DNA of 64,000 bases from Anaeramoeba ignava BMAN (Eukaryota > Protista > Anaeramoebae). The notes under the pieces are model-generated. The model saw only the letters and a program-made list of their open reading frames with translations, made no database searches and had not been told where the DNA came from. Numbering within the stretch: the stretch's first letter is position 1; each line of letters begins with the position of its first letter. The stretch spans positions 41,056 to 105,055 of the forward strand of contig JAPDFW010000002.1 in the NCBI GenBank assembly GCA_028826165.1, written 5' to 3'. A program made the translations under genes and the position numbers. Shown in pieces: positions 22,401-53,447 of this stretch.

Positions 22401-25400
22401 AAATTGAAAATCAAAACCAAAATCAAAATGAAAATCAAAATCAAAATCAAAATCAAAACAAAAATGAAAAAAGTGAAAATTTTATAAATATTCGTTTAAG
22501 AATTATGAAAATTATTTTTGGAATTTTTCGACAAATTCATCTTTATTCTTTTGTGCAAAATCCAAAACTTTCATTCCAAAGAGAATTTGAAAGAATTTTA
22601 TTTTTTGTTGGTTTCTCATTCAAAAATAAGCCAGATCAAAGATTTATCCTTTTCAATTTATTATCAAATATTCTGGAAGATTTGACTTCTTGGATTGAAA
22701 ACTCGTTAATTGATCTAAACTCTGATTATTCTTTTTCCAAAAATTTAGTTTATCTCACAAATTTAATCTATTGTTTAGCTTTTGAGCAAAAATACAATTT
22801 TGATTTAGAACCTGATATTAATGATTTGAAGAAAGCAAAAAAAACAATTTCAACAAGTCTAAGCGTCTCAAAGATATCTCCTTATAATCGCAAAAAAGGT
22901 AGCTTGAAAATAATGAAACAATACAAAGATCGAGTATTTGAGTCTCAATATGACGAGATGCGCAACAAAGATAATGGAAATCCAATCAAAAGAGACACTC
23001 TATCCATTTTGGAGTTTAATACTGTGATCAGGTTACTAAAACTATTGAATCGTTTAGGAGTTTATTCGAACTTATTTATATTCAGAAACAAAGGAATAAC
23101 TCGAAGCTTTTATGAAATTATCTTGATTCTACTTGTAATTTATATAAAAAGATCAAACCCCGAAAACATGGAGTTGATCGCAGATTGCATAATCTCTCTC
23201 CATTCAAAAGTCTTTATCACAAATTCAGTACTATCTTCAAGTCTCTCTGATTTTAATTACATAACTTTTTGTTATCTGTTTAAGCATTACAGAAAACAAG
23301 AAACAACAAAAACAAATTATCTAACTAATTCAGGGAGATAATTGGGAAAGCATTAAACTCACGTCTACTCAAATCACAAGCGATGAAGATAAAGATGATG
23401 AGGATGATAATGATCAAAAACAAAACCAGACCAAAAATCTCACAAAATCACAAATAGTCGTTTCCGAGAGCAAAGATGTCATCATGGTAAAAACTATTTG
23501 GACAATGATGAATTTGCGATACGAATTCTTATCACGGATTTTGAATTTCAAAGGCAGAGAACAAATGTTCCCAAAATTCCAAGAAAAATCAAAACTATTC
23601 AAAATGATAATTCAAGAATTTCGACAAGTTATAAACGAAAAAAATTTCCGAAAAGCAACAAAGAACGCATTTTCCCAATACAATCAACAAATCAAAGCAA
23701 ATATCTTCCAAAGCACAAAAGATTTTTTGAGAAATCAAATCACTAATTCACATATCTTGAATAGTAATATGATCAAAAACATGGAATGGAACAAAAATAA
23801 AATCGAATTGGGAATCAAAATTATCGAAAAGCAATATGAAGAACCATTATTTAAAGATGAGAGAGAAAGATTGGAAAAAGAAAATTTCAATAAAAAACAA
23901 AGCTTAATAACATCTTTTCAGGATTTTAAACCAGTTATTGCTAAATCACTTTATGAACAATTAGAACCTTTATCCGTCTTGAAACAATACAAAAAACGTG
24001 GCAAAAAAAAAGAGAATGAAAATGAAATTGAAAATGAAAATGAAAATCAAATTGAAAATGAAAACAAAGAAGAAGAAAAAGAAGAATATCCTTCTTTCAT
24101 CTTCAAATTATCCACCAAAGAAGATATGATGAGACGAAGATTTATTCTTGATATTGAATGGTCTCAAGATATAAAACAAAACTTCTTCAAATCTCCCATT
24201 TCAGAAGATCCTAATTATATGTTTCTTGATCGAATTATCAGGAAAAGGATAATAAATTCAGAAGAAGATAAAAAATTCATTTTCAAACTCACAAAATTGC
24301 AATCCAATGAGAACTTATTTATGCCTTGTTTTTGGGTTTTCTTGGAAAATGAAAAACCACTATTGATTTTAATCCAAGAGAAATTCTTACTTTTCTTTCA
24401 ACCAAAATTCGAATTGAATCAAGATAAAGATAAATTAAATCAAATTTTAATTTTAATTCCCAAATTCAAATTAAGCCCAAATGAATTCTTTATTCTTCAT
24501 AATTTGTGGGAAATTTCAGACATTTCCAAAATTTTCACAAGAACATCACTTCACAAAAATAATTCACTTGAAATATTCTTCAGAAAATCGCATCCTCTTC
24601 TTCTTCGCTTTAATTCAGAAAATTCAAGAGATATTGTTTTAAATTTTTTACTGAGTCATAACCAACTGAGACTCAAAGAAAGATTTACTGATAAAATCAA
24701 TCTCAAGGAATGGAAATGGTTCAACAAATGGAGAAACAGAGAAATTAGTAACTTTGAATATTTGATGGAATTAAACACATTTGCTGGAAGAAGCTACAAT
24801 GATTTATCACAATACCCAGTGTTTCCGTGGATATTAACAGATTACACATCAGAAAAAATTGATTTATCAAATAAGGAAATATATCGTGATTTATCAAAAC
24901 CAATCGGAGCTTTAAATCCAGATTTACATCAAGCATATCAAAAAAATTATGAAACAGTCAAAAAGAAAAAGGAAATGAAACCATTTTTTTACGGAAAAAA
25001 TTACTCAAATCCAATGGTTGTGCTTTCTTTTCTCTACAGAATTGAACCCTTCACTTCTTTGTTTTTCAAAAAAGCAAGAAGAGTATCTAAATCAGTTTCT
25101 GTGAATTCTATTGCCAATACTTGGCAAAGTTGCTTTTCAAATCAAAATGATGTTCGAGAATTAACTCCCGAATTTTTTTATTTTCCCGAATTCCTTGAAA
25201 ATACGAATAGAATAACATCTTCATATCCCGAAAGAAACGGATCAAAAATCCCAGATGTTGAATTACCAAAATGGGCGAGAAATTCTCAAGATTTCATTCG
25301 TATTCATCGGGAAGCACTTGAATCTGAATATGTATCTGAACATCTTCATGAATGGATAGATTTGATATTCGGATATAAACAAAAAGGATCCGAAGCTAAA

Positions 25401-26606
25401 AAGGCCATGAATGTTTTTTATCCTTTAACATATGACAATCCTCATAATTTTTCAAAGCTTGACAAGCAACAGATCGAAATTACAGAATTGCAAATGCAAG
25501 TTCTTGGACAAATACCAAAACAACTATTCAAAAAACCTCATCCACAAAGATTGCCAATCGATAAAGCAGCAAATCCACTTTTGTGTATCCAATTAAAATA
25601 TTATCCGTGTGATTTAGATTTTCACACAACAACCATCGGCGAAACTTCAATCTTATTTGCGAAAGGTGTGGAGTTTGTTGAAAGTTTAGTTTTTTTGAAT
25701 AACTCAAGAAAGGTTTTCACATTCAGTTCAGAGCACGAAATGGGCGTTCATCAATTACTCGCTTTCAACTTAGTTTCTGATGAAAAAGTAAACAAACCAA
25801 CAAACAAAGTTGAGCTTTCAACAATTTATAAATTATCAGTAGATGCAAATTTTGGAATTGATACCACAAAATATTCACAATGTTTTGAAGTGCATGATTC
25901 AGCAAAATTTGCTTTTTGTTGCGGATTTTCAGATTCAACATTCATAATCATCAACATTGAAAATTCTCAAATTATTCAAAGTATTTGCGCAAATAAAGGA
26001 GTAGTCACTTGCATATCTTACATGAAAGGATATCTTGTCACAGGTTCGCAAGACGGATCTGTTTCTGTCTGGGAATCAAGAGATCCTGAGCATTTTAAAG
26101 ATGTTCCTCTTCGCGTTTTTCTTGAACATGAAGATGAAGTTACAAGTGTTGATTTAAATGTGGATTTGGATATTGTTGTCAGTGGTTCAAATAACGGAAA
26201 TATAATTGCTCATAGTTTATTCAAAGGAAAGCATCTATTTACTTTCCATGAAAAAGATAACTCTCCAATTTCTCTTTTGAAAATTTCAAGAAATGGTTAT
26301 ATTGTTGTTACTTATCAATCAAGTATGAAATTTTCTTTATTTACTATAAATGGAAGACTTATTCGTAGAATTCATTCTTTTCAGCCAATTTATTCCTTTT
26401 GTATCATGGATAATGCTCAGTTTATGTTTCTTGGTGGAAAAGGTTTTATCGAAATTAGAGAGGTTGAAAATTTAAGGTTGATTTCAAAAATTAATATTCA
26501 ACAACAAATTTTTTCTCTTTCTCTTCTTTTTGACCAAAAATATTTAATTGCTGGTTCTGCTAATGGAAGTTTATTTATTGGTCAAATTTTATATTCTCAT
26601 AATTGA
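13493..26606 (+). CDS. Giant BEACH-domain protein (ARM-like N-terminus, ConA-like domain, PH-BEACH, WD40); LYST/Lvs/neurobeachin superfamily
   Basis: BEACH motifs 'WRNREISNFEYLMELNTFAGRSYNDLSQYPVFPWIL', 'DVRELTPEFFYFPEFL', 'HREALESEYVSEHLHEWIDLIFGYKQKG', then WD40 'LVTGSQDGSVSVW'. ConA-like region ~19740-20310. In-frame GT-AG introns at 13619-13739, 13984-15475, 15997-16072, 16236-16314 and 17595-17702. Frameshifts in the NQ repeat (~16840-17200) and at ~23335. Confidence 0.88.
13984..15475 (+). repeat. 1492-nt intron filled with (AAAATC/AAATCC/AAAATT)n hexamers with higher-order duplications
   Basis: GTAAAT..AAAAG boundaries, phase 1, give C+AT (His) and rejoin the frame of ORF 15481. The block ending 'ctaaatcaaaattaaaatccaaatt' occurs at both ~15040 and ~15228. 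Confidence 0.85.
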
Positions 26607-26739: not shown

Positions 26740-29700
26740 ATGGATTTTCAAAATTTACTTCAAAAAGCTCAAAATTTAAATTCTTTTCAAGAAAAATCAA
26801 TTCCAAAATTACAAAAACCAATTAATCAAGTAAATGTTCAATCAAGAAAAGAACCAATAGAAATAGAAATAGAAATAGAAACAGAAAAAGAAAAAGAAAC
26901 AGAATCAAAAATTATAACAGAAAAACCTAAATTAAATTCAAATAAAGTTCGAAATTTTCTTTCTAAAGCTGGTTTTGAATCTGATAAATTTATTCGAGAA
27001 TTATCAAAATTTCAATCAAAAAATATTAATCAAGAATTTAATTTAGATCCAATTATTCAAACAAAATCAGATTTAAATGTGCATTTTAAAAATATTCACG
27101 AAACAATAATCCTCAAATCTATTGAAGAAACAATACAAAAAACAATCTCAAAATCAAGTGAATATTGTTTTCAAACTGCACAAGATGAATGGGAAAGCAG
27201 TAAAAATTCTATACTTGAAAAGGAATTAAAATTAAATCAAATGGATTATTTCCAAGATTCCATTCAAAATTCGCAATCAAAAGATGTGGAAATTTTATTA
27301 TATTCTCCTGATTCTAATTTATCAAATGAAATGAGCAATATTCCTCCAAATTTAAACAAAGATCCAAATTTTTAGTCAAGCAATTATCAATTTGAATTTT
27401 TATAGAAACAAAAAACAACCTTATGGAATTATAAATGTATTTCAATCAGCTCAAAATCAACTATCCGCACTTTCAGATTTAAGTGAAAAGAAAATAATTG
27501 AATTGAATGATATTTGGGAATTATTAGCTTGTATTATTTCAGAAAAAGATGTTAAAGATGGGATTTTCCAAAACAAAACTCTTCAAGAACAACATTATTT
27601 AATAGATTATCAAGAAAAAAACTCAAACATCTCAAAAACATTTATTAGAGGAGCACTTGATTTCTTAGAAAGTCAATACACAAAATTTATTCGAAATCAA
27701 ATTCAAAAAAATCCAAGAAAGGCTAAAGTTGGAGGAGTTCCTGGAATAATATCTTTAATTTATGGATTTTTAAACATTCAATTTAAAACAAGTGAAGATC
27801 ATTGGCCTTCAAATTTTGTTGATTTTGTTGATGGAATTCCTGTTTGGCCAATAATATATTATCTTCTTAGATGTGGAGAGTTGGAATCAATTCTTAAATT
27901 TTTAATTGATATCAAAGATGTTGCTTCAAATGATGTTGTTCAATTTCTTGTTTATTTCAAAGAATATATTGAAAATGATGGAATGTAAAAAATATTTAAA
28001 AAAAAATATAAATAAAAATATAATTAAAAATATTTAAAAAATATAAATAGACTTTCAGAATATTTATGGACAAGACTATTTCATCAATATAGAAATATTG
28101 TTCACACTTGTGATGATCCTTATAAACAAATTGTTTTTAATATTATTGGGAAATGTGATATACATTCAATGACATCAATTTTGAATTCTTTAGAAGATTA
28201 TATTTGGTTTATGGTATTAAAAAAAAATCATTTGAATTATTTAAAAGAATTCATAATTTTAATTTCATAATTTTATTATAGTTGTTAATGATACAAGATG
28301 ATAAAAGTAATAGAACTGCTTTAAATGAAATTTTTACACTTGAAAAATTACAAGAAAATATTCTTGAATATGGAGAAAAACATTTTAATCCAACAGGAAA
28401 AAAACCTCTTCAATTTTTTAGAATTCTTTTATTATCTCAATTATTTGAATGTGCTGTTGCTTATCTTATTCAATATAGTGAATATTATTATGAAGCAGTT
28501 CATTTTGCTATTGCTTTATATTATTATGGAATATTGAACTATCTTCCTATTCAAAAAAAGGAAATTGGATATAAAAATATTCAGCAAACCAAAACAAATC
28601 CAAAACAGAAAATCAAGAAATTATGGAATTTAATTCAAGTCTCAATAGATAATGATTTTCTTGTTTTAAATCAAGAAAAAAACATCATTTCTTTTATGTT
28701 TAGCCAAATGATCAAATCTTATATTCACAGATTTTATCCCAAAGAGGATCATCTCGATATTTCACTTAATTACTTAAACATAATCCGTGACAAACAAGAC
28801 TTATATTATGCAGTAAAAGATTTAGTATTGGAAACTCATCAAATTGATTATATTTTTGGGAAAGTTGATGATGATCAAGATAACCGAGAAGAAGGAATTG
28901 TGTTTCAAATTTTCCAAAATTTAGAAATGGAAGAAATTCAGGAAATGATGAAAATTACTGCTATTCAATTTGAAGAAAATGGATTATATGAAGAGGCTAT
29001 TCGCATTTATGATTTTGCCAATTTTAATCAAAAAGCAATTGATTTATTAAATCAAAGATTAAGTAGAATAATTGGTGGTGATTCAAAAGAAAATGAAAGT
29101 TTAATAGAACTTGCTCAATCAATTAGAATAAGATATCAATCATCTTCTATTCTTTGGAATAATGTTAATCCTGAATCTTCAGAAAATTTTGTTATTTTAT
29201 TATATCTTATTGATTTCTTTTATCTTTATTCTATTGGAGAATTTGGAGAAGCTCTTTCTGTAAAAAATTTTTTTAATTTTAATTTTCAATTATCCAAAAA
29301 ACAATAATTTTTATTCCATTTTCAAATTTAAAAAAAATCAAAAAAAATTTTTATATATAGATTATTGAAAATTTAAAATTAGTTCCTTTTGATTCTTCTC
29401 AAATGAATGAATGTATGATAAGATTTGCAAGTTTGGGTAATTCTATTAAGAAAATATTTAGTCAAATTCTTCTTGTTTCAATGACAATTCTTTTTAAAAT
29501 ATTTGAAAGTAATCAAATTGAATTTACAAATGATTTATTTGATGGAGGACAAATTAGAGTAAGAAAATTATATTTAAAAATTATATTTTAAATTAATTTT
29601 CTAATTTAATTTTTTAATTTTTTTAGTATTTAAATGAATTAAAATCTAAAGCTTCAAATTTAATGAAATTTTGTGGAATAATTCCACTTAGAATTCCAGA

Positions 29701-33001: not shown

Positions 33002-35122
33002 TTAATCAGATTTTGATTTAGAAAAATAAATTTTTAAAAGAGAACGAAAATCTAAAATTAAACACAATAAAGAGCTCCAAAATAAAGAAAAAGAAGTTAA
33101 AACACCAATAATCAAGTATCCTTGATAATAAACAAATGTAAAAATCATTAAAGACATAATTATTGAAAAGAACGAAACCAAAAGAAGAAAAAGACTAATC
33201 CATTTATACAATTTGTTTTTCTTTTGGATTAAATGATATAAACTAGCAAATGCTTGTGTATTAATTGATGGGAAATAAGCAAAAGATAAAAACACAAGAG
33301 CATGATAAGCAGGTAAAGAATAAGAAATAAAATGTGAATCAATATAACAACCCCATAAAAATGCAATTCCAAAATCTTCACCAATCATTTTGCCAATTGA
33401 AACAGGTCCAAATAAAAGGAAAATTCCTGACAAAAAATTGAAAATGAAATCTTTAAATGGAATTAATGAATATTTCCAGATATTGAAAATTAAATGATTA
33501 AAAGGAAGTAACAAATAAGATTTAAATGATGGTTTCTCGAAAATTGTTTGGCTCATTTTCTGATTAAATTTATCATAAATTTGTATTTTTTTCAAAATAA
33601 ACTTGACAATTTGAGGAACAAGTCCCAATCCCACAACAAAAAGAAAAAAGAAAAAAAGCAACAAACTCCAAATGAATTGATACAATTCAAGTTTTTGTGC
33701 AGCATTCCAATATGTTGGCTTTATTTGTTTAACTGTTCCATCAATTGAAAAAGAGTGAGATTTTTCTGCAATAATTTCGCCATTTGAATTTTTAACAACA
33801 ATATTTAAATTATGAAGTCCTTTATCACAACATAATTGAGGATCCCATTTAGTTACAAATAAAGGATGATTTTTTTCCACTTGTTTCATTTCTAAAGGAT
33901 TTTTTTTCCCATCGATATAACAAGAAACTGAGGCAACATTATCCCAATTATTAGGAAAAATCAAAACGCGAATATATTGACTTTTTTTGATTAAATTTAA
34001 TGGTTCATTATAAGTAATGAATCGAGCGTTTTTTGGGTTTGTAACAACTATAAGAGCTTTTTGTTTAGGTTTTTTCTCGTTTGATTTTTGAGATGTAATT
34101 GATTGTGAGCTAAAATCAATATCATTTATATCGAAATCTTCAAAACTGAAAACATCATTATCAATTGCAAAAATTCTAAAATTGCTTTTTTTTTTAAGAT
34201 CGCCAACTTCAAGTTCTAATGTTTCTTTTGAGTTTTGATTTTTAGAAAGTCTTGAATACATTCCTTTCTGGTGAATATGACCATTTAATAAAGCCAAAAT
34301 GGAGTATTTTGATGAGAGATGACGAATAGAATTATTCTGAGCATTTAATGGGAATTGTAAGAATTCTTTTGGGTAATATTGATGAAGAAAAGTTGGATGA
34401 TGCATGAAAAGAATTGTTTGATTAGCTTGAGTTTGATTCAAAAAACTTTCGAGTTTTTGCAACATAGATTCACTAACAAAGGAAAAAAAACCGATTGGGG
34501 AAGAAATATGAGGATAAGGATTGAAATCCAAAGAAATAAATTGATATTGACCGAAATCAAAAGAGAATAAAAACTGATTGACAGGATTTCTTTGTGTTTG
34601 ATTAAGATATTCAGTTAAAGAAGAATAACGATAATAGAAATTATTTGGATCGTATAAATCATATATTGCTGAACTATCATGATTTCCTCGAATATCCAAC
34701 CATTTTTGAGGAGATGATAAATTATATTTTTCAAGAATATTCTTATAAATTATCCATTCTTCAATGTTTTGTTGATTTTTATAACGTAGATTACTTGTAG
34801 ATTTTGCATCAGTTATATCTCCAGTGTGAATTACAAAAGAAGGGTTTATTTTGGGAATAAATTCTGAAACAAAATATTCAAATTTCTCAATTGTTTCTGG
34901 ATGAAATTTGTTTAAATGTGTGTCTGAAATGTGAATAAACCAAAATAATTTTTCTGTTTTATTATCAAATCCTGTTTCATTTTTTATATTTGATTTATAT
35001 TCTAAATTTTCTAAATCTATTTTTTTAATTGTTGTTAATGTTGGATATATAAATATTATAAGAAAAGTTATTGTAAAAGCAAAGCAAGAACAAAAATCTC
35101 TAAGAAATAAATAAACAACCAT
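33002..35122 (-). CDS. TMEM62: TMEM62-like calcineurin-type metallophosphoesterase with C-terminal transmembrane domain
   Basis: 'WFIHISDTHL', 'HTGDITD', 'WLDIRGNHD', 'FMHHP', 'LNGHIH', 'LELEVGD..FRIFAIDNDVFSF', 'VVTNPKNA', followed by ~6 TM helices; intronless. Confidence 0.88.
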   Translation of the reverse strand: MVVYLFLRDFCSCFAFTITFLIIFIYPTLTTIKKIDLENLEYKSNIKNETGFDNKTEKLFWFIHISDTHLNKFHPETIEKFEYFVSEFIPKINPSFVIHTGDITDAKSTSNLRYKNQQNIEEWIIYKNILEKYNLSSPQKWLDIRGNHDSSAIYDLYDPNNFYYRYSSLTEYLNQTQRNPVNQFLFSFDFGQYQFISLDFNPYPHISSPIGFFSFVSESMLQKLESFLNQTQANQTILFMHHPTFLHQYYPKEFLQFPLNAQNNSIRHLSSKYSILALLNGHIHQKGMYSRLSKNQNSKETLELEVGDLKKKSNFRIFAIDNDVFSFEDFDINDIDFSSQSITSQKSNEKKPKQKALIVVTNPKNARFITYNEPLNLIKKSQYIRVLIFPNNWDNVASVSCYIDGKKNPLEMKQVEKNHPLFVTKWDPQLCCDKGLHNLNIVVKNSNGEIIAEKSHSFSIDGTVKQIKPTYWNAAQKLELYQFIWSLLLFFFFLFVVGLGLVPQIVKFILKKIQIYDKFNQKMSQTIFEKPSFKSYLLLPFNHLIFNIWKYSLIPFKDFIFNFLSGIFLLFGPVSIGKMIGEDFGIAFLWGCYIDSHFISYSLPAYHALVFLSFAYFPSINTQAFASLYHLIQKKNKLYKWISLFLLLVSFFSIIMSLMIFTFVYYQGYLIIGVLTSFSLFWSSLLCLILDFRSLLKIYFSKSKSD

Positions 35123-35358
35123 TTTTTTTATATTTATTTTTATTATTAAATTTTAAATTAAAAAAAAATGAAAAATAAAAAAATTAAAAAAATTTTTTTT
35201 TAGTTCCAACTTTAATAAAATAAAAAAATTAAATTAAAATAAATAAAAATCATTTTTTTTCTTTTTTCTTTTAATTTCTTTTATTCTTTTTATTATTCTT
35301 TTTATTCAATTTTAACGGAAAAAAAAATATTTTTTTAAATAATAATAAAAAATAAAAA

Positions 35359-38300
35359 ATGACAGAAGTTTCAAGTGTTTTAAGTGTTAATCTAAATATA
35401 ATGTCTTATGTTACATTTATTGCTGTTGCTTTTGCTGCAATATTTCAATTTATTTATCTTATTTTTAGAATGTCACAAAGACATCCTAAATGTAAAAAAT
35501 TAAAATTATAATTAAAATTAAGAACAACAATTATAATCTAAATTAAAATTAAGAACAACAATTAATCTAAATTAAAATTAAGAACAACAATTAAAATTAA
35601 AATTAAAATTCATTTATAAAATTAAAATTAAAATTAAAATTAAAATTAAAATTAAAATTAAAATTAAAATTATAATTAAAATTAAGAACAACAATTATAA
35701 TCTAAATCAAAATTAAATTTAAAATTCATTTATAAAATTAAAATTAAAATTCAAATTAAAATTAAAATTAAAATTAAAATTAAAATTATAATCAAAATTA
35801 AAATTAAAATTAAAATTAAAATTAAAATTAAAATTAAAATTAAAATTAAAATTCAGAACAACAATTATAATCTAAATTAAAATTAAAATTAAAATTAAAA
35901 TTAAAATTAAAATTAAAATTAAAATTAAAATTAAAATTAAAATTAAAATTAAAATTAAAATTAAAATTAAAATTTAAATTAAAATTAAAATTAAGAACAA
36001 CAATTATAATCTAAATTAAAATTAAAATTAAAATTAAAATTAAAATTAAAATTAAAATTAAAATTAAAATTAAAATTAAAATTAAAATTAAAATTAAAAT
36101 TAAAATTAAAATTAAAATTAAAATTAAAATTAAAATTAAAATTAAAATTAAAATTAAATTAAAATTAAAATTAAAATTAAAATTAAAATTAAAATTAAAA
36201 TTAAAATTAAAATTAAAATTAAAATTAAAATTAAAATTAAAATTAAAATTAAAATTAAAATTAAAATTAAAATTAAAATTAAAATTATAATTAAAATTGA
36301 AATTAAAATTAAAATTAAAATTAAAATTATTAAAATTAAAATTTAAAATTTAAAATTTAAAATTAATATCAAAAAAGTATTGGCATTAAGTTTCCTTGCT
36401 TTGGGTTGGTATTATTGTTACTCTATGATATCTCTTGTTGTAAATTTTAAACCAAATGGAAAACTTGAAACAGCAATGAGAGGAAGTTTTGTTTTTGCAG
36501 CAGTTCTTATGGGATCAGGACCTTTTTTACTTTTAACACCAATAAAAACAGTTGTTTCAAACATTCAAAATATTGTCAAACAACAAGAAATTGGATCATC
36601 AAAAAATCAAATCAATCCTTTAAAATTTTTATTCTTCTTTTTGTGTTTAATTGGTTCTTTTTTTACAGAATACAGTTTAATAAGAACATTATTTTCAATA
36701 TTGGATGTAAATTGAAAAATTAAATCAGAAAACAAAAAGAAAAAAAATTTTAAATTGAAAAACAAAAATAAAAACAATTTTTTTTAATGATTTAATAATT
36801 TAGCTTGATATAAGATTTGCAATTGGAATTGTAGTTGGATTTGCTTTATTAGCAAGTGTTTTTTTACTTGCGTTTTTTTCAGTTTTAATTGAACAAGAAA
36901 TTGTTATTAAAGGAGTTAATATGATGGAAAGTTTAAGAAGAAGTATAATTATCAAAAGAAAAAACATAATGAATAGTAGAGTATATGCATGGTTTTACAT
37001 AATTTTATTCATCTGCGCAATAGTTGGCGTTGGTGTTTTGATTGGAATTGTGATCAAAAATGAAAATGATTTAATCAACGATAAAGATTCAAGCAAAAAA
37101 CCTACAGAATCATTATCTTATATGTTTTTTATTTGGAATTCATTAGTTACTGTTTGGATTGCATTTTTAATTTTTGGTGTTTTTATTCATCCAATCAAAA
37201 TCGAACTTGTGGAAACTGATATTGGATTGGTTTCTTTATCGGATATAAGATATTTTGCTGTTGCAAGATCTTTTGATAGGACTATTTTGCTTACATTTTC
37301 TAAAGCACCAAATGATTATTCAAAAAATGAAATTGAATCTCAAATTAAATATTTAGTTAAAAAATCCTCGATTGAAGATGGATATACAAACAAAATCAAT
37401 TTCTCTGATGGAGAAATATTCCAATTAAATGATCATAAATGCATGTTTTTTCTTGCTGTTCAATTTTATTATCAAGAAGATTTAGCCTTTTTATTCTTGA
37501 AAAAAATGAAAAAATATGTTGGTAATAAATATTATCATGAATTTGCAAATCCATTAAATGGAGAATTTGAGGAAATCAATAGTGGGTTTTATTTATATTC
37601 TTATGATTCTTGGTCTGAAGAATCAAAACCTTTTATTAATTTGATGGTTCAAACATTTGGTAATGAGGATTGTAGATATTTATTACTTGAAGAAGCAAAA
37701 AGAATTAAAAAAATGGAACAAGAATCACAAAATTGGAATTCAAATGAAATTCAAAAGGAAAATATTTCAAGAACACTTTCAACAATTAAATATCTAAATG
37801 ATGAAATTGGAACTCTTTTGTTGGATCGTTTATTATTTGAAGAATCACAATCACAATCAGAAATTGATATTGATTCAGAAAAAAAGAAAAAGAAAAAGAA
37901 AAAAGAAAACAAAGAAAATGAAAACAAAGAAAATGAAAACAAAGAAAATGAAAACAAAGAAAATGAAAACAAAGAAAATGAAAACAAAGAAAATGAAAAA
38001 AATTCAAATCAATTCATCTCTATAAAAGAAATGATAAAAAATGATATAAATAGTTACTATAAATTGATTAAGGAAAAGAAAATTTATCTTTCTTATAAAA
38101 AATATCCAGAAGTTGAAAACCCTATTTTTTTCATTCAAGGAAGAAATTCTGGATATGATCTTCCAATTCCAAAATTTGAAGTTATGACAGAAGAAGAAAT
38201 GAAAAAAACACAACATCCTTTCAAAATTCAAACCAAAAAGAAGTTTTTGAAATTACATTCAAAACAACAATGGATTCAAAAGGATATTTCAGAATTACTT

Positions 38301-41272
38301 CATTTGGATTCACCTGAAACAAAATCTGAAGCAAAAAGAAAATTATGGACAAATGATTCTTATCTTTTCAATAGTGAATATTCTTTGGATCGTTTCAATA
38401 CTCAAAAGGAAAAATCTAAATTTGTGAAAAGAGAATTTACAGAAATGTTTCCTGTTAAAGATAGTAAATTAGCTGGTGATGTTAAAATGGTTAAATCTTT
38501 TGTTGAAAAAATTGAAGATGAAATGGATTTAGGAAAAGGAAATGTATTTAAAATGAAGAAAAAAGCTGATGGATTAGAAATTAGTGATGATAGATTAACA
38601 ATTAAATCTACAAATATAAAAAACGATTTGAATCAAAATCGAAATCAAAATCAAAATCAAAATCAAAATCAAAATCAAAACGAAATGAAAATGAAAATCA
38701 AAATCAAAATCAAAATGAAAATCAAAATCAAAATCAAATTGAAAATCAAATTGAAAATCAATTACAAAATTTACTTCCTTTTTTTATACGTAATTATCAA
38801 GATATTTTTTCTACTTTTAATGGCAAATGCTTAATTTATTATGGAGAAAAAAATGAATATCCTGATGGATTAAAAGTTATAATGGAAAAACCAATTCCTT
38901 TATGGAATCAATTATATCTTCAAAATTTTGAATCTTTCTATTTCGAAATTAAAATTGCAAATACTGGAAAAATAAATAAAGCTAATATTGGAATAGGATT
39001 ATATGATGAATCTCAAGAAACATCAACATTTGAAGAATTACTTCAAAAAAATATTTGTATTATTGCAGATGAAGAACTTTATTTTCAACAAAATCCACAA
39101 GCATATAAAAAGAAAAAGTTAAAAGAAGAAAAAGAAAAAGAAAAAGAAAAAGAAGAAGATAAAGATAAAGATGAAGATGAACAAGAATTAAAATTGATAT
39201 CTTCAGATGAAAAAGATGAAAAAGATGAAAAAGATGAAAAAGATGAAAAAGATGAAAAAGATGAAAAAGATGAAAAAGATGAAAAAGATGAAAAAGATGA
39301 AAAAGATGAAAAAGATGAAAAAGATGAAAAAGATAAAAAAGATGAAAAGGATATTAAAAAAGATGATAAAGAAATAGAACCTCCTAATCCAAATTTAAGA
39401 GCAGATCCTTTGAAATTAACTATTGATTCTGATTCTGATTCTGATTGGGATATTCAACCTCAAAAACCTAAAATGAATCTTGGAAATAATGTTAAAATCC
39501 TCAAACCAATAAAATTGGGAAGATGTTTAGGATGTTTAATTTCAATTAAAACACAAAAAATTATATTTTATGTTAATTCTCAAATTGTTTTTTCAGTTCC
39601 TTTGAATTTTTCTCAAGATCAAATGAAAAAAATATTTCCAATGATTTGGTTTAAAACAGAAAGTACACTTGCAATTTATAAAATGGGATTTGGAGATTAT
39701 CATTCAGGACCAAAAACTTCAACAGATTTAATGTTCGAACATTTACTTGATGAAAATATTGAAATTAATGAAAATGAAAATGAAAATGAAAATAACAATA
39801 ATAACAATAATAATTTACAGTTAATTTCTTTAAATCAACCAAATATCAAACAAAATGAAAAATTAATTTTTTCTCTTCCTTCTGAAATTATTATACAAGA
39901 AAAACTCAATTTAAAAGTTAATGAATATTGGAGAAAAAAGAATCGAAGTCATTTCAATAGTAATTATTCAAATATTGTTTCAAATTTACCATTTATTGAA
40001 GGAATATGTATGTTTGAAGTGAAAATTATTAAATCAAAAATTCCTGTTGAAAAATTTTCATTTGGAATTGGGTTAGTTATTAAATCAGAATATGAAAAAT
40101 ATCACAAAGAATATTCAAGTTGTTGTTTAGGGAAAATTTTTGAAGATGAAGAAAAAACACAAAAATCATTGATTCCAAATTCATCATCAATTGGTTATTA
40201 TGGAAATACAGGAATGATTTTCAAAAATAACAGATCTTATGTTTATGGACCACAATTTTATGAAGGAGATACTATAAGTTGTTTTATTAATTTATCAACA
40301 GGAGTTATTGCATTTGCAAAAAATGGATTCTTTTTAGGAATTGCTAATAAATTTGAACCAAATCAAGTTGTTCTTCCAATAATTTCTTTTGGAACAGAAG
40401 GAATCACAGTAAAAGTTAATTTTGGAGCAAAAATGAGGAATTTTGAACCACAAAATCGATTGGAATTTATTGATCCAAAATCAGGATTTGAATATCCAAA
40501 TGCTTTTGGAAAAGATACTATTATCCCATTTGTTGATAATGATATTTTTGATGTTGTTTCTCAACACACACAAAAATATTTTGAATGTTTGACTTATATT
40601 ACTCCATTTACAATTTTAGAACAAAAGAAAGGAATGATTGAAATTGCAAAACTTATTAAAAGACTTAAATTGATCATGATTAAACAATTCATTTCAGATG
40701 AATCTTTATCAAAAAATGAACAATTAGAAGTTGATTTGCATGTGAGATTATCTTTGAATGAAATTCGGAAAACTTTTGTTTTAAAAGAAGGAGAATTTTT
40801 ATATAATTTCTCACAAAGAAAAAAACTAATAATTGATCCATGTTGTCTTAATTTTGAATTTGATCCTAAATTACAATCCAAAGTTGAAATTAGAATTATT
40901 CACATAATATTAATTTGCATTAATAGCTTTCGTTGGTTACGTTTTATTGAAGGATTTCGTGCTGCTGAGTTTTTGGAATCAAATATTTATAGTTTGGATC
41001 TTGAGAAAAAAGCAATTAATTCATTAGGAAAAAGTTCAGGTTTAACAAAAGAACAATTTGAAGAATTAAATTTATTTATTGATTCTTCTTTGGATTATTT
41101 TATGAAAATTCTTGAATTATTAAATTCTCATTCAATTTCTTCTCAAGCTATTTCTCATATTGTTGCTAAAAGTAATCCTTTATCTCAAGATGAAACTGAA
41201 GATATGGCACAAGAATATGTAAGAGATGATGGAGGTTTTCAAGATCCTTTTGCAAGTTTCAAAATAATGTAA
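35359..41272 (+). CDS. Seven-TM protein fused to a longin-like domain and two SPRY domains
   Basis: Exons 35359-35491, 36378-36706 and 36804-41272, with a frameshift in the NQ repeat at ~38685. Seven hydrophobic helices; longin-like 'IRYFAVARSFDRTILL..CMFFLAVQFYYQEDLAFLFLKKMK'; SPRY1 'YFEIKI..NIGIGL..LGCLIS..IIFYVN..IFPMI'; SPRY2 'SIGYYGNTG..YGPQFYEGDTISCFINL..FAKNGFFLGIA..PIISF..VKVNFG'. Confidence 0.75.
35492..36377 (+). repeat. 886-nt intron filled with (AAAATT)n plus six dispersed copies of an AGAACAACAATT(ATAATCT) unit
   Basis: GTAAAA..AAAAAG, phase 1 (T+TA, Leu). The unit occurs at ~35521, 35552, 35581, 35685, 35855 and 35994. Confidence 0.85.
39208..39349 (+). repeat. Coding 9-nt repeat (GATGAAAAA)n encoding (DEK)n inside the first SPRY domain
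   Basis: Visible directly in the DNA and in the ORF 38882 translation. Confidence 0.9.
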
Positions 41273-44400: not shown

Positions 44401-47400
44401 AAGCTCAAAAAATCATTCAATTTGAAATGAAAAAGAAAAGACAAGAAAAAGTATTTATGATAAATATAATGGAAAATTTTTAATTTAATTTAATTTAATT
44501 TAATTTAATTTAATTTAATTTAATTTAATTTAATTTAATTTTATTTTATTTTAGGAATTAAAAATCTCCAATGATTTGAAAAATGAAGGGAATTTGCATT
44601 TTCGTGAAGGAGATTGGGAAGGAGCAATTGCTTTATATGAACAAGCATTAAAACAAACTCCAAAATATGCATCTAAAGAATATTCAGTCATTTTATCAAA
44701 TCAAGCTGCTTGTTTTCTTCTCTTAAAACAATATGATAAAGTTATTGATTTTTGCACACGATCACTCGAATATTCTCTCAAGTATCCAAAATCTATTTTC
44801 AGAAGAGCATTCGCTTTTTGTGAAATTGAAAAAAACCTACTTGCTTACGAAGGTTCATTTCAAATCAATTTTTAGTTTTTTAATCAAAATCCAAAAATCC
44901 AAAATTTCATTTTATTATAAAAAATAACAACTTAACTTTTTTTTTTAATTTTGTATTAAAATAGATTTGAATGCAATTCGTTATGTGGATCCAAACAATA
45001 CAGAAGCAAGTGAACTTTTTAATCGAGTGCGCATGAAATTATATCAAGAAATCCAAAACAAATCCCAAAAATCTGGGAATTTAACAGAAATCCAAAAAGA
45101 CAAAGAAGAAGTAAGAAATGATTCAGAAAATACAAATGAGAGTCAAGAAAACGAAAATGATTTAAATCTAGAAAATGAATTTGAAAGCATTGATGAAAGA
45201 GATTTATGGGATTCCATTCCAATTACTCCTCAAACTATTTCTCAATTTCTAATACAACAATGTGAAAATCAAAATATTCAAAAAATTCTTTCAACAGACA
45301 TTATATTTATAGAAAATTATATCAATTTTTCTTGCAAGAAAAACTCAGCTAAACTTCTTAGTATTCTTCATTTCAAGAAAAATGAACAAGATTCAAAAGA
45401 AAAAAAATCACAATCACAATCACAAAAAAACACAAGAAAAAAAGGAAAAGGAAACGGAAATTCTCAACAAAAACAAAATTCAAACCAAATTACTTCAGAA
45501 AATATCCAAAAATTATTGATTAAATTTGCTCTTTTTGATAAAATTATTCTAGTTAATCAAGAAATCAACCAGAAAAATCAAAACTATAAACTCACAATTT
45601 CTCCAAATGAAATATCTACAAAAGAAAAAGCACTCGAATTTTTTAAAGAAATTTCACAATTTACAGACACTAATTGTGAAATACTTTTTGCAAATGGAAA
45701 AATCAATGATATAACCACCAAAAAAACTGACAATGGAAAAAACTCAACAATAAACAAAGAACAATTAAAAATCAAATTGGAACAAGTACAAGCAAGATTT
45801 GAAAGTTTAAATTCTGATCTTCAAGAATCATATATGCTTTTCTTAGTTTTCATCTCAAAATTTTTCATGATTCAATTAGAAAATGAATATAAATATTATT
45901 ATGCCAAAAAAGAGCATAATCACACATTTTCTTTTCAAAATATCATCTATGAAAAACAATACAAGAAAGAAATTTCAAAACTCGTAATTAATGCAAAGAA
46001 GTTAATAATTGATAAAAAAATCAAATTCCAAAAGAAAATTAATGATTATACTTTCAAAATTGAAAAAATTGAAAGAGATGAACAATTGAAAAAGTTTCAA
46101 GAAGAACAAAAAGAAAAACAAAGACTTGCTGAATTGGAAGCAGAAAAAAGAAGACTAGAAAAAATTGAAAATAAGAAACAAAAATTAAAGAGAAAAAAGC
46201 AGAGAAAAAGAAATAAACGAAACCAAAACCAAAACCAAAATCAAAATCAAAATCAAAATCAAAATCAAAACCAAAATGAAAATCAAAATCAAAAACAAAT
46301 TGAAAATGAAAATCAAAATCAAAATCAAAATCAAAATCAAAATCAAAATCAAAATCAAAATCAAAATCAAAATCAAAATCAAAATGAAAATCAAAATCAA
46401 TCAGAAAAAATTAAAAAAACAAAAAGTGAACCAGTAAAAAAACAAGAAAAATTTACAAAACAACACGAATAAAAATGAAGATCCCAAATAAAGAATTACA
46501 AAACAATCTTTTGAGTCAACTAACAAATGAAGAAGTTGATGAAATAACAGGATATTATGATTTAGATGAGAACTTTTGTCATAGCAAAACAATGTGGATT
46601 GGAGATGTTGGAGAAGAATTTACAGAAAAAAAACTTGAAAAATTATGTTCAAAATATGGAAAAATCAAGAGTGTGAAAGTAATTCAACATACACATTGTG
46701 CTTTTGTTAATTTCAATGATTTCAGGAATCTTGTTATTGCTTATAAGGATATAAAAGGAAAAACAATTAACGGAATGGTATTTAATACAATGAATATTGC
46801 AAAGCCACATGAAAGTGGAAATAAAACAAAAAAGCCTATTATGAGTGGAGAAACTGAAAAATTTTTGAATAAATTCCCACAAGGATCTGTTTTAATATTG
46901 AAAAATCTCCCTTTTCATGTTAATCCAAATACAATTAAATCTTTATTTAATAATTATAAAATTTGTTCCAATGGAATTTATATTATCAAATCAAAATTAA
47001 ATTCTTCTGCTCAATGTTTTGTTGCATTTATTAATCATTATGAAGCTATATCTGCATTGAAAAGTAAACAAAATTTCAGAATGAATTGGAGAAATGTTTA
47101 TGTTTCTCTTGTAAATAATCCTAATGAACAACAAAAGAATGTTTCAACTTCCCCAAAATTTAAAAAGAAACAAAATGAAATTAAAAAAGAAAAACAAATT
47201 CAAAAAGAAAAACAAATTAAAAAAGAAAAACAAATTCAAAAAGAAAAACAAATTAAGAAAGAAAAACAAATTAAAAAAGAAAAACAAATTAAGAAAGAAA
47301 AACAAATTAAGAAAGAAAATGAAATTAAAAAAGAAAAACAAATTCAAAAAGAAAATGAAATTAAGAAAGAAAATCTTTCTGGAACAAAGCAATTAATTAT

Positions 47401-48303
47401 TGATAGATTATCCAATTTAAAAAAATTACATTTCGAAGAAAGAAATCAAGAACCAAAAATTGGGGTATTTGAAAGAAATATATCGCCTATAAATCCCCAA
47501 TATCAAACAAGATATGGAAATACATTAAATCTTAATCCAAATCTTAATTCAAATCTTAATTCAAATCTTAATTCAAATCTTAATTCAAATCTTAATTCAA
47601 ATCTTAATTCAAATCTTAATTCAAATCTTCCTTTTAAATTCGAAAATGAAAAAAAAATACTTCCAAACTCTCCAAATTTTTCTCAATCCTTCCCAAATTT
47701 TCTTCCTGATGAAAAGAGGAATTTTCCACAACAAAAATCAAATCTTGAAATTTTCCAAAAAATACATCAAGAATCATTTAAAAATAATTCTGAAATGAAA
47801 AAAGAAGAAAAATCGAATATAAACATGAATCATTTTGGAAATACATTTGGAAATTCTTATAATATGAATCAACCAATTTTTCCAAATCAACCAATCAATA
47901 ATTCAGAACCAAATTTTTTAAAACCACAAATCACAACCAAAAATTCCAATTCAAATATTCAAGCACAAACAATTAATAACAATATTAATTTTTCATTCAA
48001 ATCACTTAATAATAATATTTACAATTTTATTAATTTTGATTCAATTAATTCTATTAAAGCAAGAAGTGAAAACAAAATACCCAATTTATCTCATTTAAAA
48101 CCACAAGAAAAAAAAACAACAACAAATAATTATTCATTAGAAAAATGATTGATTCCACAAATACAGAAGAAACAAAAGAAATTCAAAATAATTTTTTTGA
48201 TTATCCAATTATAAATTTTTCAAATATTGGGGATTTTTTTCAAAATCCAGATCAAGATCAAAATCAAAATCAAGATCAAAATCAAAATCAAAATCAAAAT
48301 TAA
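41431..48303 (+). CDS. Multidomain protein: ST7-like TPR-fold domain, D/Y/N/H-rich region, TPR triplet, coiled coil, two RRM domains
   Basis: ST7-like 'QEIYEQA..LRLNPKNISALVLFANE', 'DPLGVRF', 'NPEVPVYLLG..EAIHY'; TPR 'LKNEGNLHFREGDWEGAIALYEQAL..LSNQAACFL'; RRM1 'TMWIGDV..CAFVNF'; RRM2 'LILKNLPF..CFVAF'. Introns 41834-41937, 42244-42336, 44451-44554, 44853-44964. Frameshifts at ~46460 and ~48143 are assumed; the RRM part (46475 onward) could be a separate gene. Confidence 0.7.
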
Positions 48304-48552
48304 AATTAAAATTAAAATTAAAATTAAAATTAAAATTAAAATTAAAATTAAAATTAAAATCAAAATTAAAATTAAAATTAAAATTTAAATCAAAATCAAA
48401 ATTAAAATCAAAATCAAAATTAAAATTAAAATCAAAATCAAAATTAAAATTAAAATTAGAATTAAAATCAAAATCAAAATTAAAATTAAAATTAAAATTA
48501 AAATTAAATTTAAAATCAAAATCAAAATCAAAATTAAAATTAAAATTAAAAT
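48301..48552 (+). repeat. (TAAAAT/CAAAAT)n hexamer array beginning at the stop codon of the upstream gene
   Basis: The coding (CAAAAT)n NQ tail changes in register into (TAAAAT)n at 48301. Confidence 0.9.
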
Positions 48553-48560
48553 TCCAAAAA

Positions 48561-48583
48561 TCATTTTTCATTTTTTTCATTTT
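48561..48583 (+). promoter_or_regulatory. Three TCATTT Inr-like motifs upstream of RCC1-BTB
   Basis: TCATTT at 48561, 48568 and 48577; ATG at 48599. Confidence 0.45.
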
Positions 48584-48598
48584 TTTTCTTTTTCAAAA

Positions 48599-50368
48599 AT
48601 GAATGAAATTATATTTTTTGGAAGAAATCAAAATTCAAAACTTTTCAAAAATGAAACAGATAAAATAACAAAACCAATTCAATTTAAATTTGAAAATGAA
48701 AATGAAAATGAAAAACAAATTAAACAAATTTCATCAAGCTATTTATCAACAATTTTCCTTTTTAAAAATGGAAAAGAAATAGAATATTTAAGTGAAGAAA
48801 ATGATTCAAATCAAAATCCTGAAAAAATCCAAATTGAAGAAAATATTCAAAAAGTAACTGTTGGTGTTCGAAATGAAGCTATTTTAACAATAGAAGGAAA
48901 TGTATTTGCCAAAGGAAAAGATATTAATCCAAATAATTCAAATGAATTTATCAATATTTCATCATTAATTGAAGATACAGATGATAGAATAATTGAAGAT
49001 ATTGTTCCTGGAAGAAATTCAATTTATTTATTAACTTCAAATCAAAATGCTTATGGAATTGGTGATAATGAATATGGTCAACTTGGTTTTGATTATGAAA
49101 CACTTCCAAAAACAGAAAAACCAATTTTAATGATGAAAAATGTTTCTAAAATATTTTCAGGAAATTGTTCAAATCATGTTTTTCTTTTAAATTCAAATCA
49201 AGAATTATTTGGATGTGGCTATAATGATGATTGTCAACTTGGATTAGGAGAATCAAGAAGAAGAAAAGAAACAAAAATCCAAAAATTAACCCAAATCCAA
49301 AATATTCCAAAAGGTAAAATAATTGATATTAAATGTGGAAATATTCATTCAATAATGTTGATTGAAAATGAAAATCAAAATCCAAAAAGAAAACTTTATT
49401 CAACTGGAGATCATTTATCTAATGGACTTGGCAAAAATGGAAATGCTTATGAATTTACTGAAATCAAATTATTTTTATTTGAAAATGATAATATTCTTGA
49501 TTTTTCTGTTGGATGGTTTCATACTTTGATTTTAACTTCTAATTCAAAATTAATAGTATTTGGAGATAATTACTTTGGTGAATTAGGAACTGGAAATACA
49601 GAAGATAAACCAATTCCAATCCAAATTAAACTTCCTGAATTAAGATTTAATGAAAATATTTCTAATTATCATATTTCTTGTGGATCTTTCAATTCATTTC
49701 TTTATTATTCTTCTTTTCCTTTTTCCAATCTTGAAGAAGATTTGATAAAATTATTTAAAAGAAAAGAATTTTGTGATATTTCATTTAAAACCAAAAATGG
49801 AGAAATAATCAAAGCTCATAAATTAATATTGAAATATAGATTAAATCAAAATGAAAATCAAATTGAAAAACTTGAAGAAATTATTTCAACAAAATCAATT
49901 AAAGAATCAAATCAAATATTTGAAATGATTTATTCAAATAATTCCAAAATAAATCCAAAATTATATTCTGAAATTAAAGAAATTATAAATTTAAATGAAA
50001 AAATTGAAGAAACAATGAAAAGAATTTATTTAAATGAAAATGAAAAAGATTTTATTATTGAAAGAAAAGAAAAACAATATAAATTTCCTAAATTAATATT
50101 AATAATGAGAAGTGAATTATATCGAGGAATGTTTTTATCTGTAACTGAAGATAAATCTAACAAAGTTACAGATTATAGTGAATTAAGTAATAAATCATTT
50201 CAATTATTAGAATATTGGATTTATTCAAATCAAATTAAAGATGGAATTAAAATTACACAAGAAATTATTAATGAACTTAAAATTGGAATTGATTATTTTC
50301 AATTAAATCAAACAAATCCAAATTTATTTGATTTATTAATTAACAAAATTAATAATCAAAATCAATAA
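48599..50368 (+). CDS. RCC1-repeat / BTB-POZ domain protein
   Basis: RCC1 motifs 'GIGDNEYGQLG', 'GCGYNDDCQLG', 'IKCGNIHS', 'SVGWFHTLIL', 'FGDNYFGELGTG'; BTB 'FCDISF..IKAHKLILKYR' and 'KDFII..KLILIMRSELYRGMF..LLEYWIYS'; intronless. Confidence 0.88.
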   Translation: MNEIIFFGRNQNSKLFKNETDKITKPIQFKFENENENEKQIKQISSSYLSTIFLFKNGKEIEYLSEENDSNQNPEKIQIEENIQKVTVGVRNEAILTIEGNVFAKGKDINPNNSNEFINISSLIEDTDDRIIEDIVPGRNSIYLLTSNQNAYGIGDNEYGQLGFDYETLPKTEKPILMMKNVSKIFSGNCSNHVFLLNSNQELFGCGYNDDCQLGLGESRRRKETKIQKLTQIQNIPKGKIIDIKCGNIHSIMLIENENQNPKRKLYSTGDHLSNGLGKNGNAYEFTEIKLFLFENDNILDFSVGWFHTLILTSNSKLIVFGDNYFGELGTGNTEDKPIPIQIKLPELRFNENISNYHISCGSFNSFLYYSSFPFSNLEEDLIKLFKRKEFCDISFKTKNGEIIKAHKLILKYRLNQNENQIEKLEEIISTKSIKESNQIFEMIYSNNSKINPKLYSEIKEIINLNEKIEETMKRIYLNENEKDFIIERKEKQYKFPKLILIMRSELYRGMFLSVTEDKSNKVTDYSELSNKSFQLLEYWIYSNQIKDGIKITQEIINELKIGIDYFQLNQTNPNLFDLLINKINNQNQ

Positions 50369-51741: not shown

Positions 51742-53447
51742 ATGGATAATAATAATAATAATAATAACCAAATTGAAAATGCAAATCAAAATGAAAATCA
51801 AAATGAAAATGAAATGAAAAATTTAGAAAAAGTAACAAAAATTTAATTAAAAATTATTCAAACCTTTTAAATGGAAATTCATTTAAAGATTTTTCAATTT
51901 TTGTTGAGAATAAATCAAATCCTTTTGAAATTAAAGTTCATAAATCAATTTTATCTTCAAGATCTCCTTTTTAATGAATCATTAAGGCAAGAATCTCTTT
52001 CTATTTCTTTTAAATCAATTTAATAAAAAAGAAATGGAATCAATTTTGAGTTATATTTATTATGGAAATATTTCTTTTGAGAATCAAGAAAATCTTATCC
52101 AATTATTGAAATTTCAATTTATTTTAAATTAAATTTATTGAAAGAAATTATTCAAAAATTTCAAATTCAATTAATTATTCAAATTTTTTCCAATTTTTAT
52201 TCCAAAATCGAAATTTAAATTCAAATGAAATTGAAATAAAATGTTTTGAATTAATAAATCAAAATTTTTCCCAAATTCAAAATAATGAGAATTTATTCAA
52301 TTTAACTAAAGAAGAAATTATCAAATTTATTCAATTTAAACAAGAAAAAAAAGAAATTTTTCAATTTGATTTTTTTCAATTTTTAAATAATTGGATTAAA
52401 AAAAGAGTTAATTCATTAAAATTAAGGAAATATGAAAACAAAATGAATGCAAAGAAAAGATTATTTCATTCTTTTTTTTCATTATTTGATAAAGATTCAA
52501 TTTCAAAACAAGATTTTGATAAATTAAAACAATTTGATTTTTTTCTTCCAAATTCTTTTTTAATTCATTTTGAAAGAACTATTTTTGAAATTCAAGATAA
52601 AGAAAAGATAAAGAGAATCAAAGAAAAAGAAAAGGAAATTAAAAGAAGAGATAAAAGAATCAAATCATTTGAATCAGAAATTCGAAATTTGAAACAAGAA
52701 AATCAAAAGAAAGAAAAAGAAAATCAAAATCTCAAATCTGAAAATGAAAACCAAAAACAAGAAAATGAAAAGAAAGATAAGATTATCAAACAAAAAGATG
52801 AAGAAATTCAAAATATTAAATTATCATTTGAAAAAGAAATTGAAAAAGAAAATCAAAAAGAAGAATCAAAACAAAATCAAAAGAAATTGTTGAAGATTTT
52901 TTCAGATTCAGAAATTATTAAAGATATTGAATATGCTAAGAAATTACAAGAATGGATAAATGATAATGATTTTTTTTCTAAAATGAAAAAAGGATTTTCA
53001 GCAAAAAGAGATGGATTTTCTGGTCAAAATTGGCATAAAGCAGTTGATGGGAAAGGAAAAACATTAGTTATTATCAAAACAAAAGATAATTTTATTTTTG
53101 GAGGTTTTACTCAAGTTGGATTTAAATATGTTCAATCAGGTTATGAATACATTAATGATTCAAATGCATTTATTTTTTCATTAAGAAATGATAAAGGGGA
53201 TAGAATACCTGCAAAGTTTACAATTAAACAACCTCAATATGCAATTTATTCTAATTTAAGTTATGGTCCAACATTTGGTTATAATGATTTTTATTTAAAT
53301 TCTAATTTACAACCTGGTTATTCAAATTTTGGTAAATATTATAATCTACCTAATGGAATTACTTACCAATCAAATGAAGCTAGAAGTTATTTAGCTGGTT
53401 CTCCTGATAAATGGATTGTTGATGAAGTTGAAACTTATTTCATTTAA
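51742..53447 (+). pseudogene. BTB/POZ + coiled-coil + TLDc domain protein; 5' half broken by several frameshifts (pseudogene or poorly polished copy)
   Basis: Reading across shifts gives BTB 'FKDFSIFVEN..IKVHKSILSSRSPFF..ILSYIYYGNISF'. TLDc is intact: 'FSAKRDGFSGQNWHKAVDGKGKTLVIIKTKDNFIFGGFT..AFIFSL..YGPTFG..LAGS..VDEVETY'. Confidence 0.75.

Follow-up and report, generated by a model that had tools for sequence, protein, structure and literature searches.

A seven-helix membrane protein of Anaeramoeba ignava with an internal SNARE-type longin domain belongs to an apparently undescribed protist family

Within a 64,000-nucleotide stretch of AT-rich eukaryotic DNA from Anaeramoeba ignava BMAN (contig JAPDFW010000002.1, positions 41,056 to 105,055; hereafter the window), we analysed a forward-strand gene at positions 35359–41272. 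Its product, which has 1643 residues when read across one frame break with X, places a SNARE-type (VAMP7/Sec22-like) longin domain (37240–37650, +) at approximately residue 300, behind seven predicted membrane helices instead of at the N-terminus, and SPRY domains follow. The gene is real, and so is the family to which it belongs, which is apparently undescribed. The first-pass annotation had read the protein as resembling G protein-coupled receptors (GPCRs) and carrying a captured R-SNARE gene; its observation is confirmed in part and its interpretation is supported in part.

The orthologue from A. flamelloides, P0003 (KAJ6236226.1, 1488 amino acids), is the top match whichever part of the protein is searched, with E 1.5e-55 from the membrane-plus-longin part and E 3e-64 from the SPRY2/C-terminal part. 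It aligns in the same order on both sides of the frame break, clusters with the window protein at 100/100, and is 38% identical to it over the first 500 residues. Judged from this collinearity, the seven-helix and SPRY parts belong to one gene, as had been claimed.

The three-exon model proposed earlier also holds. Exon 1 (35359–35491) contains the start codon, a short N-terminus and transmembrane helix 1 (TM1), and aligns to P0003 without gaps. Exon 2 (36378–36706) encodes TM2–TM4 with the basic loop 3 and, where TM3 ends, a conserved GPFxxLxP, while exon 3 (36804–41272), aligned to P0003, runs through the stop codon with the frame break inside. Joined, 35359–35491, 36378–36706 and 36804 onward give an open frame, and only one of the 15 open splice combinations uses both acceptor 36377 and the intron at 36707–36803. 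This intron 2 (97 nt, GT..AG, +) is precisely absent from contigs of runs X3 and X4, which come from two studies, and is retained in X1. X3 and X4 have no RNA label on record and were read as cDNA because their contigs skip it. The X4 contig begins at 36378, with 164 extra letters upstream, and runs through the longin to 37834. The joint between exons 1 and 2 was not seen directly and is one that we infer; the exon 1 donor is the sole open in-frame donor for acceptor 36377. Intron 1 (35492–36377, 886 nt, GT..AG, +) consists almost entirely of an AAAATT tandem microsatellite with AAGAACAACAATT units scattered among the repeats.

The frame break (38679–38683, +) is a lone 5-nt unit within a 6-nt repeat, where the orthologue is continuous, and is likely an assembly error. 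It could instead be real, leaving this copy truncated or a pseudogene: the break is present in the window, and reads are not placeable across the repeat, where the contigs are cut. However, it affects just a single short unit of a tandem repeat, the 860 codons past it stay open and match P0003 to the last residues, X3 and X4 contigs are present on both sides, and the BEACH gene of the same window is likewise split between overlapping frames, which makes this alternative very improbable.

The seven helices claimed at first are borne out by two lines of evidence. Family-averaged hydropathy over 11 full N-termini gives seven peaks, and an AlphaFold model of P0003 residues 1–491, built on a 23-row alignment, starts with seven long helices, which a short hairpin connects to the longin and a further long helix, with a mean predicted local distance difference test (pLDDT) of 80.6 and a predicted template modelling score (pTM) of 0.61. 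TM5–TM7 (36810–37190, +), which include the basic loop 5 with a conserved Arg, correspond to model helices 157–182, 213–246 and 256–282. From the strongly basic character of loops 3 and 5 we infer that the N-terminus probably lies outside and the C-terminal tail in the cytosol. Polar residues are conserved inside the membrane, namely an Arg in TM3 (9 of 12 rows), a Gln in TM4 (16 of 18, with Ser in the window protein) and Asn/Asp in TM7 (15 of 20).

GPCR identity and ligand sensing, the other half of that claim, found no support. No GPCR family of Pfam matched any family member tested, and the best match of the membrane profile among PDB sequences (E 0.17) was an unrelated protein. NPxxY and CWxP are absent from all 20 rows and a single stray ERY lies outside TM3; such motifs are class A features, and many GPCRs do without them. 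The outer loops of the family rows are very short and contain no cysteine. These results speak against a true sensor, in which the seven-helix domain would bind a ligand or sense the lumen and directly switch the longin (in paralogues, SNARE or actin modules) in the manner of a GPCR-bigram with trafficking output. Such a sensor would be consistent with the seven helices oriented N-out/C-in by charge, with the conserved intramembrane polar residues, with the short TM7-hairpin-longin junction of near-constant length across the family, and with the seven-helix-effector fusions known from protists in the available text of PMC6033456; on balance we consider it unlikely.

The polar residues in TM3, TM4 and TM7 would equally suit a transporter or channel with an undescribed fold, for which the tail of longin and SPRY serves just for sorting and regulation, and conservation within the protein is highest in the membrane block (37–53 identical per 100 against P0003). 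However, no internal repeat was found between helix groups, all seven profile comparisons giving a probability below 1%, and the variable cassettes of the paralogues are fusion, actin and GTPase modules, so that a transporter appears quite unlikely. A SWEET/PQ-loop-like domain was rejected, since its three-helix repeat was not found (TM1–3 versus TM5–7, probability 0.2%).

The longin fold was found in the family of the window gene. A SNARE-type longin right after TM7 thus stands as first described, while its assignment to VAMP7 does not: sequence scores are E 0.003 for VAMP7 versus 0.13 for Sec22, and the domain cannot be assigned to one over the other. The long helix that follows (37660–37840, +; 429–489 in the P0003 model) occupies the position of a SNARE motif, its first residues aligning with the motif start in the VAMP7 and Ykt6 structures. 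Against the family's own R-SNARE profile it scored 0.3 bits, with 80 of 100 shuffles as good, and the helix of the orthologue scored -0.2. Neither an R-SNARE motif with the zero-layer Arg nor a Pfam match to one was found after the longin in the window protein, which also has neither the single C-terminal anchor nor the lipidation of longin R-SNAREs. The helix may derive from a SNARE motif of which no signature remains. The SNARE-like helix reported earlier was therefore not recovered in the window protein or its orthologue, but paralogues P0004, P0012 and P0026 do carry such a motif, with Pfam Synaptobrevin above cut-off.

Beyond this helix lie a charged low-complexity linker and an unassigned segment (37840–38570, +; approximately 20–26 identical per 100 columns with P0003). 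The pair of SPRY domains described earlier is only partly intact. SPRY2 (39960–40430, +) is above the Pfam cut-off (50.2 bits) and RanBP9/10-like (RanBP10, E 6e-10), whereas SPRY1 (38574–39690, +) is degenerate, with an N/Q repeat and also a long D/E/K insertion breaking it up; its second half reaches 21.8 bits, below the cut-off, and its blocks 813–896 and 1053–1112 align with P0003. Pfam SPRY is above cut-off in P0003, P0013, P0014, P0019 and P0026. The protein ends with a family-specific, probably helical domain of approximately 240 amino acids (40490–41200, +), which matches nothing in Pfam or among PDB sequences and aligns across the long members, including those of Mantamonas and Rigifila. 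It contains a conserved Trp and a PLS/TxxEQ-type motif, the latter in 8 of the 16 long proteins scanned; pairwise comparisons beyond the orthologue give a weak signal, the best E within a small set being 0.003.

A search of 1.84 billion sequence representatives gave 22 matches, 20 of which have the membrane and/or longin block. Two Anaeramoeba species account for 9 of these, the CRuMs Diphylleia, Mantamonas and Rigifila for 4, and others for 7. A profile search added three further records from the same taxa. Members with this layout are therefore found in protist lineages far apart from one another. Because the membrane-plus-longin block is shared with CRuMs, the captured R-SNARE gene of the first-pass annotation was not a one-off capture in this organism. 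The family probably goes back to the joining of a longin R-SNARE gene behind the seven-helix domain, either before these lineages split or by later transfer, and the window copy is the family form without a SNARE motif.

In the paralogues, the interval between longin and SPRY is variable and holds R-SNARE, syntaxin-like, WH2/VCA-like or permuted Ras cassettes. P0012 has an R-SNARE motif, P0004 an R-SNARE followed by a syntaxin-like motif (547–604, 628–690), and P0026 a weak Qb-like motif plus an R-SNARE (525–618). P0004 and P0026 therefore each present two different SNARE motifs in tandem within one multi-pass protein without a C-terminal anchor. P0006 contains a WH2 and acidic-Trp segment (558–620) weakly matching WAVE1, and similar motifs occur in P0034, P0035 and P0036; in these four and P0005, WH2 and/or acidic-Trp elements resemble an Arp2/3-activating VCA, several near polyproline. 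Three Mantamonas transcript forms (P0038, P0040, P0041) have Ras motifs ordered G3-G4-G5-G1-G2 between longin and SPRY. This order is the cpRAS pattern of PMC2430557, whose available text does not mention membrane, longin, SPRY or SNARE partners. Sister forms P0037, P0039 and P0019 share both ends and have half an R-SNARE motif in place of Ras. The Mantamonas forms could be alternative cassettes or assembly chimeras; four Anaeramoeba paralogues contain a short Ras switch-like remnant, and pure chimerism is therefore disfavoured.

The paralogue R-SNARE motifs match Nyv1, VAMP7 and VAMP4 best, which bears on an early-secretory cargo receptor whose Sec22-derived longin would bind COPII while the protein cycles between endoplasmic reticulum and Golgi. 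These matches and the longin scores both lean away from Sec22, and VCA-like modules are better suited to endosomes, leaving this reading decidedly unlikely.

We give about an even chance to the proposal that the protein works as a scaffold anchored in the membrane of trafficking compartments, with endosomes or phagosomes as the likeliest site; fusion as such is predicted not to be driven by it. The SNARE motifs of the paralogues lie at least 250 residues past TM7 and have no C-terminal anchor, so that a part in the timing of SNARE assembly, or in competition within it, is more likely than one in fusing membranes, and they would regulate fusion instead of driving it. The SPRY domains would bring in further partners, and the longin would act as in VAMP7/Sec22, offering coat adaptors or SNARE regulators a handle by which the protein is sorted or partners are kept at its membrane; the VAMP7 longin binds coats or SNARE regulators, according to the available text of PMC3549491, PMC2648964 and PMC2878558.

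Several points weigh against the scaffold. Pfam Longin matched no family member. The confident model is that of the orthologue, and a single-sequence model of the window protein is poor (pLDDT 48). The cassettes come from paralogues; the window copy has none, which leaves the longin as its one link to traffic. Both the VCA and the Qb matches are weak, and the permuted-Ras form is known from transcript assemblies and is a possible chimera. Nor would a passive anchor need the conserved intramembrane polar residues, which suit a sensor or transporter equally well. A bolder reading, which we hold to be unlikely, is an ancient undescribed sensor class in which the seven-helix domain, belonging to no known family, gates the longin derived from a SNARE, paralogues swap R-SNARE, syntaxin-like, Arp2/3-activating and Ras outputs, and a compartment signal controls fusion without G proteins. 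Such a class would have originated in early eukaryotes, survived in Anaeramoeba and CRuMs while being absent from the model lineages searched, and expanded in amoebae housing symbionts in membrane compartments.

In comparison with the longin R-SNAREs VAMP7, Sec22b and Ykt6, the protein shares the longin fold and sequence and the helix after the domain, and its paralogues keep the R-SNARE motif. It differs in its internal longin behind seven helices, the missing SNARE motif and C-terminal anchor, and the SPRY that follows. Tomosyn and amisyn likewise have an R-SNARE motif without a C-terminal anchor, but are soluble and have no longin or multi-pass domain; the likeness concerns P0004, P0012 and P0026, not the SNARE-less window copy. 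Databases name P0003 after RanBP9/10 of the CTLH complex, whose SPRY is nearest to SPRY2. However, RanBP9/10 are soluble and continue with LisH-CTLH-CRA, whereas the window protein has no Pfam match to LisH or CTLH and, at the sequence level, resembles them in SPRY only. Going by the sequence features and domain order compared, the gene does not qualify as a full longin R-SNARE, GPCR, phytolongin or RanBP9/10. Phytolongins (PMC2779197, available text) similarly keep a SNARE-derived longin without the SNARE motif, but are tail-anchored single-pass land-plant proteins with the longin N-terminal, and thus differ in domain order and lineage. GPCR-bigrams, RpkA and 7TM-RGS proteins (PMC6033456 and PMC3206951, available text) share an N-terminal seven-helix domain on a cytosolic effector in protists, but in them it is paired with enzymes or RGS and bears a GPCR signature. 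The available text of PMC6033456, a GPCR-bigram review, uses none of the words longin, SNARE and SPRY, and longin is also absent from that of the GPCR survey PMC12716839, the Anaeramoeba genome paper PMC11550330 and the Mantamonas paper PMC10492846. The earlier claim of novelty agrees with this: no description of a seven-helix, longin and SPRY architecture was found in the available text of the literature searched, mostly open-access articles without supplements.

Eukaryotic traffic has longins among its core building blocks, and in that literature they take the form of N-terminal SNARE domains or parts of soluble coats and guanine nucleotide exchange factors. With a longin behind a multi-pass membrane domain, shared between CRuMs and a metamonad lineage, the early trafficking inventory would gain a family. 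Neither the membrane domain nor the longin is picked up by Pfam, and the members go by unrelated database names (Ran-binding protein, t-SNARE, diaphanous, A-type inclusion protein), so that surveys starting from a query would miss the family. Two unassigned domains, the membrane domain and the C-terminal one, are worth solving, and the several Anaeramoeba paralogues are, speculatively, candidates for symbiont-compartment traffic.

Other contigs match short membrane/longin stretches and then diverge, at window positions 37213, 36964 and 37489. Two such stretches are matched by one X3 contig of 2317 letters, and these contigs may represent paralogues within the same genome. Head to head with the seven-helix gene lies a TMEM62-like gene (33002–35152, -) encoding a metallophosphoesterase plus an Ig-like domain. 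The ConA-like plus PH-BEACH-WD40 gene (17690–26606) is split across two overlapping frames at approximately 23325–23341, and more overlapping same-strand pairs of open reading frames near 27360, 46450, 58050 and 58870 may be further frame errors or short introns. Pfam also identified a tandem RhoGEF protein (8043–13016, +), Nup93 (27356–29307, +), an RRM protein (46430–48148, +), an RCC1-BTB protein (48389–50368, +), a TLDc protein (52128–53447, +) and a GC-richer open reading frame with an ephrin-receptor-like cysteine repeat (1691–5572, -).
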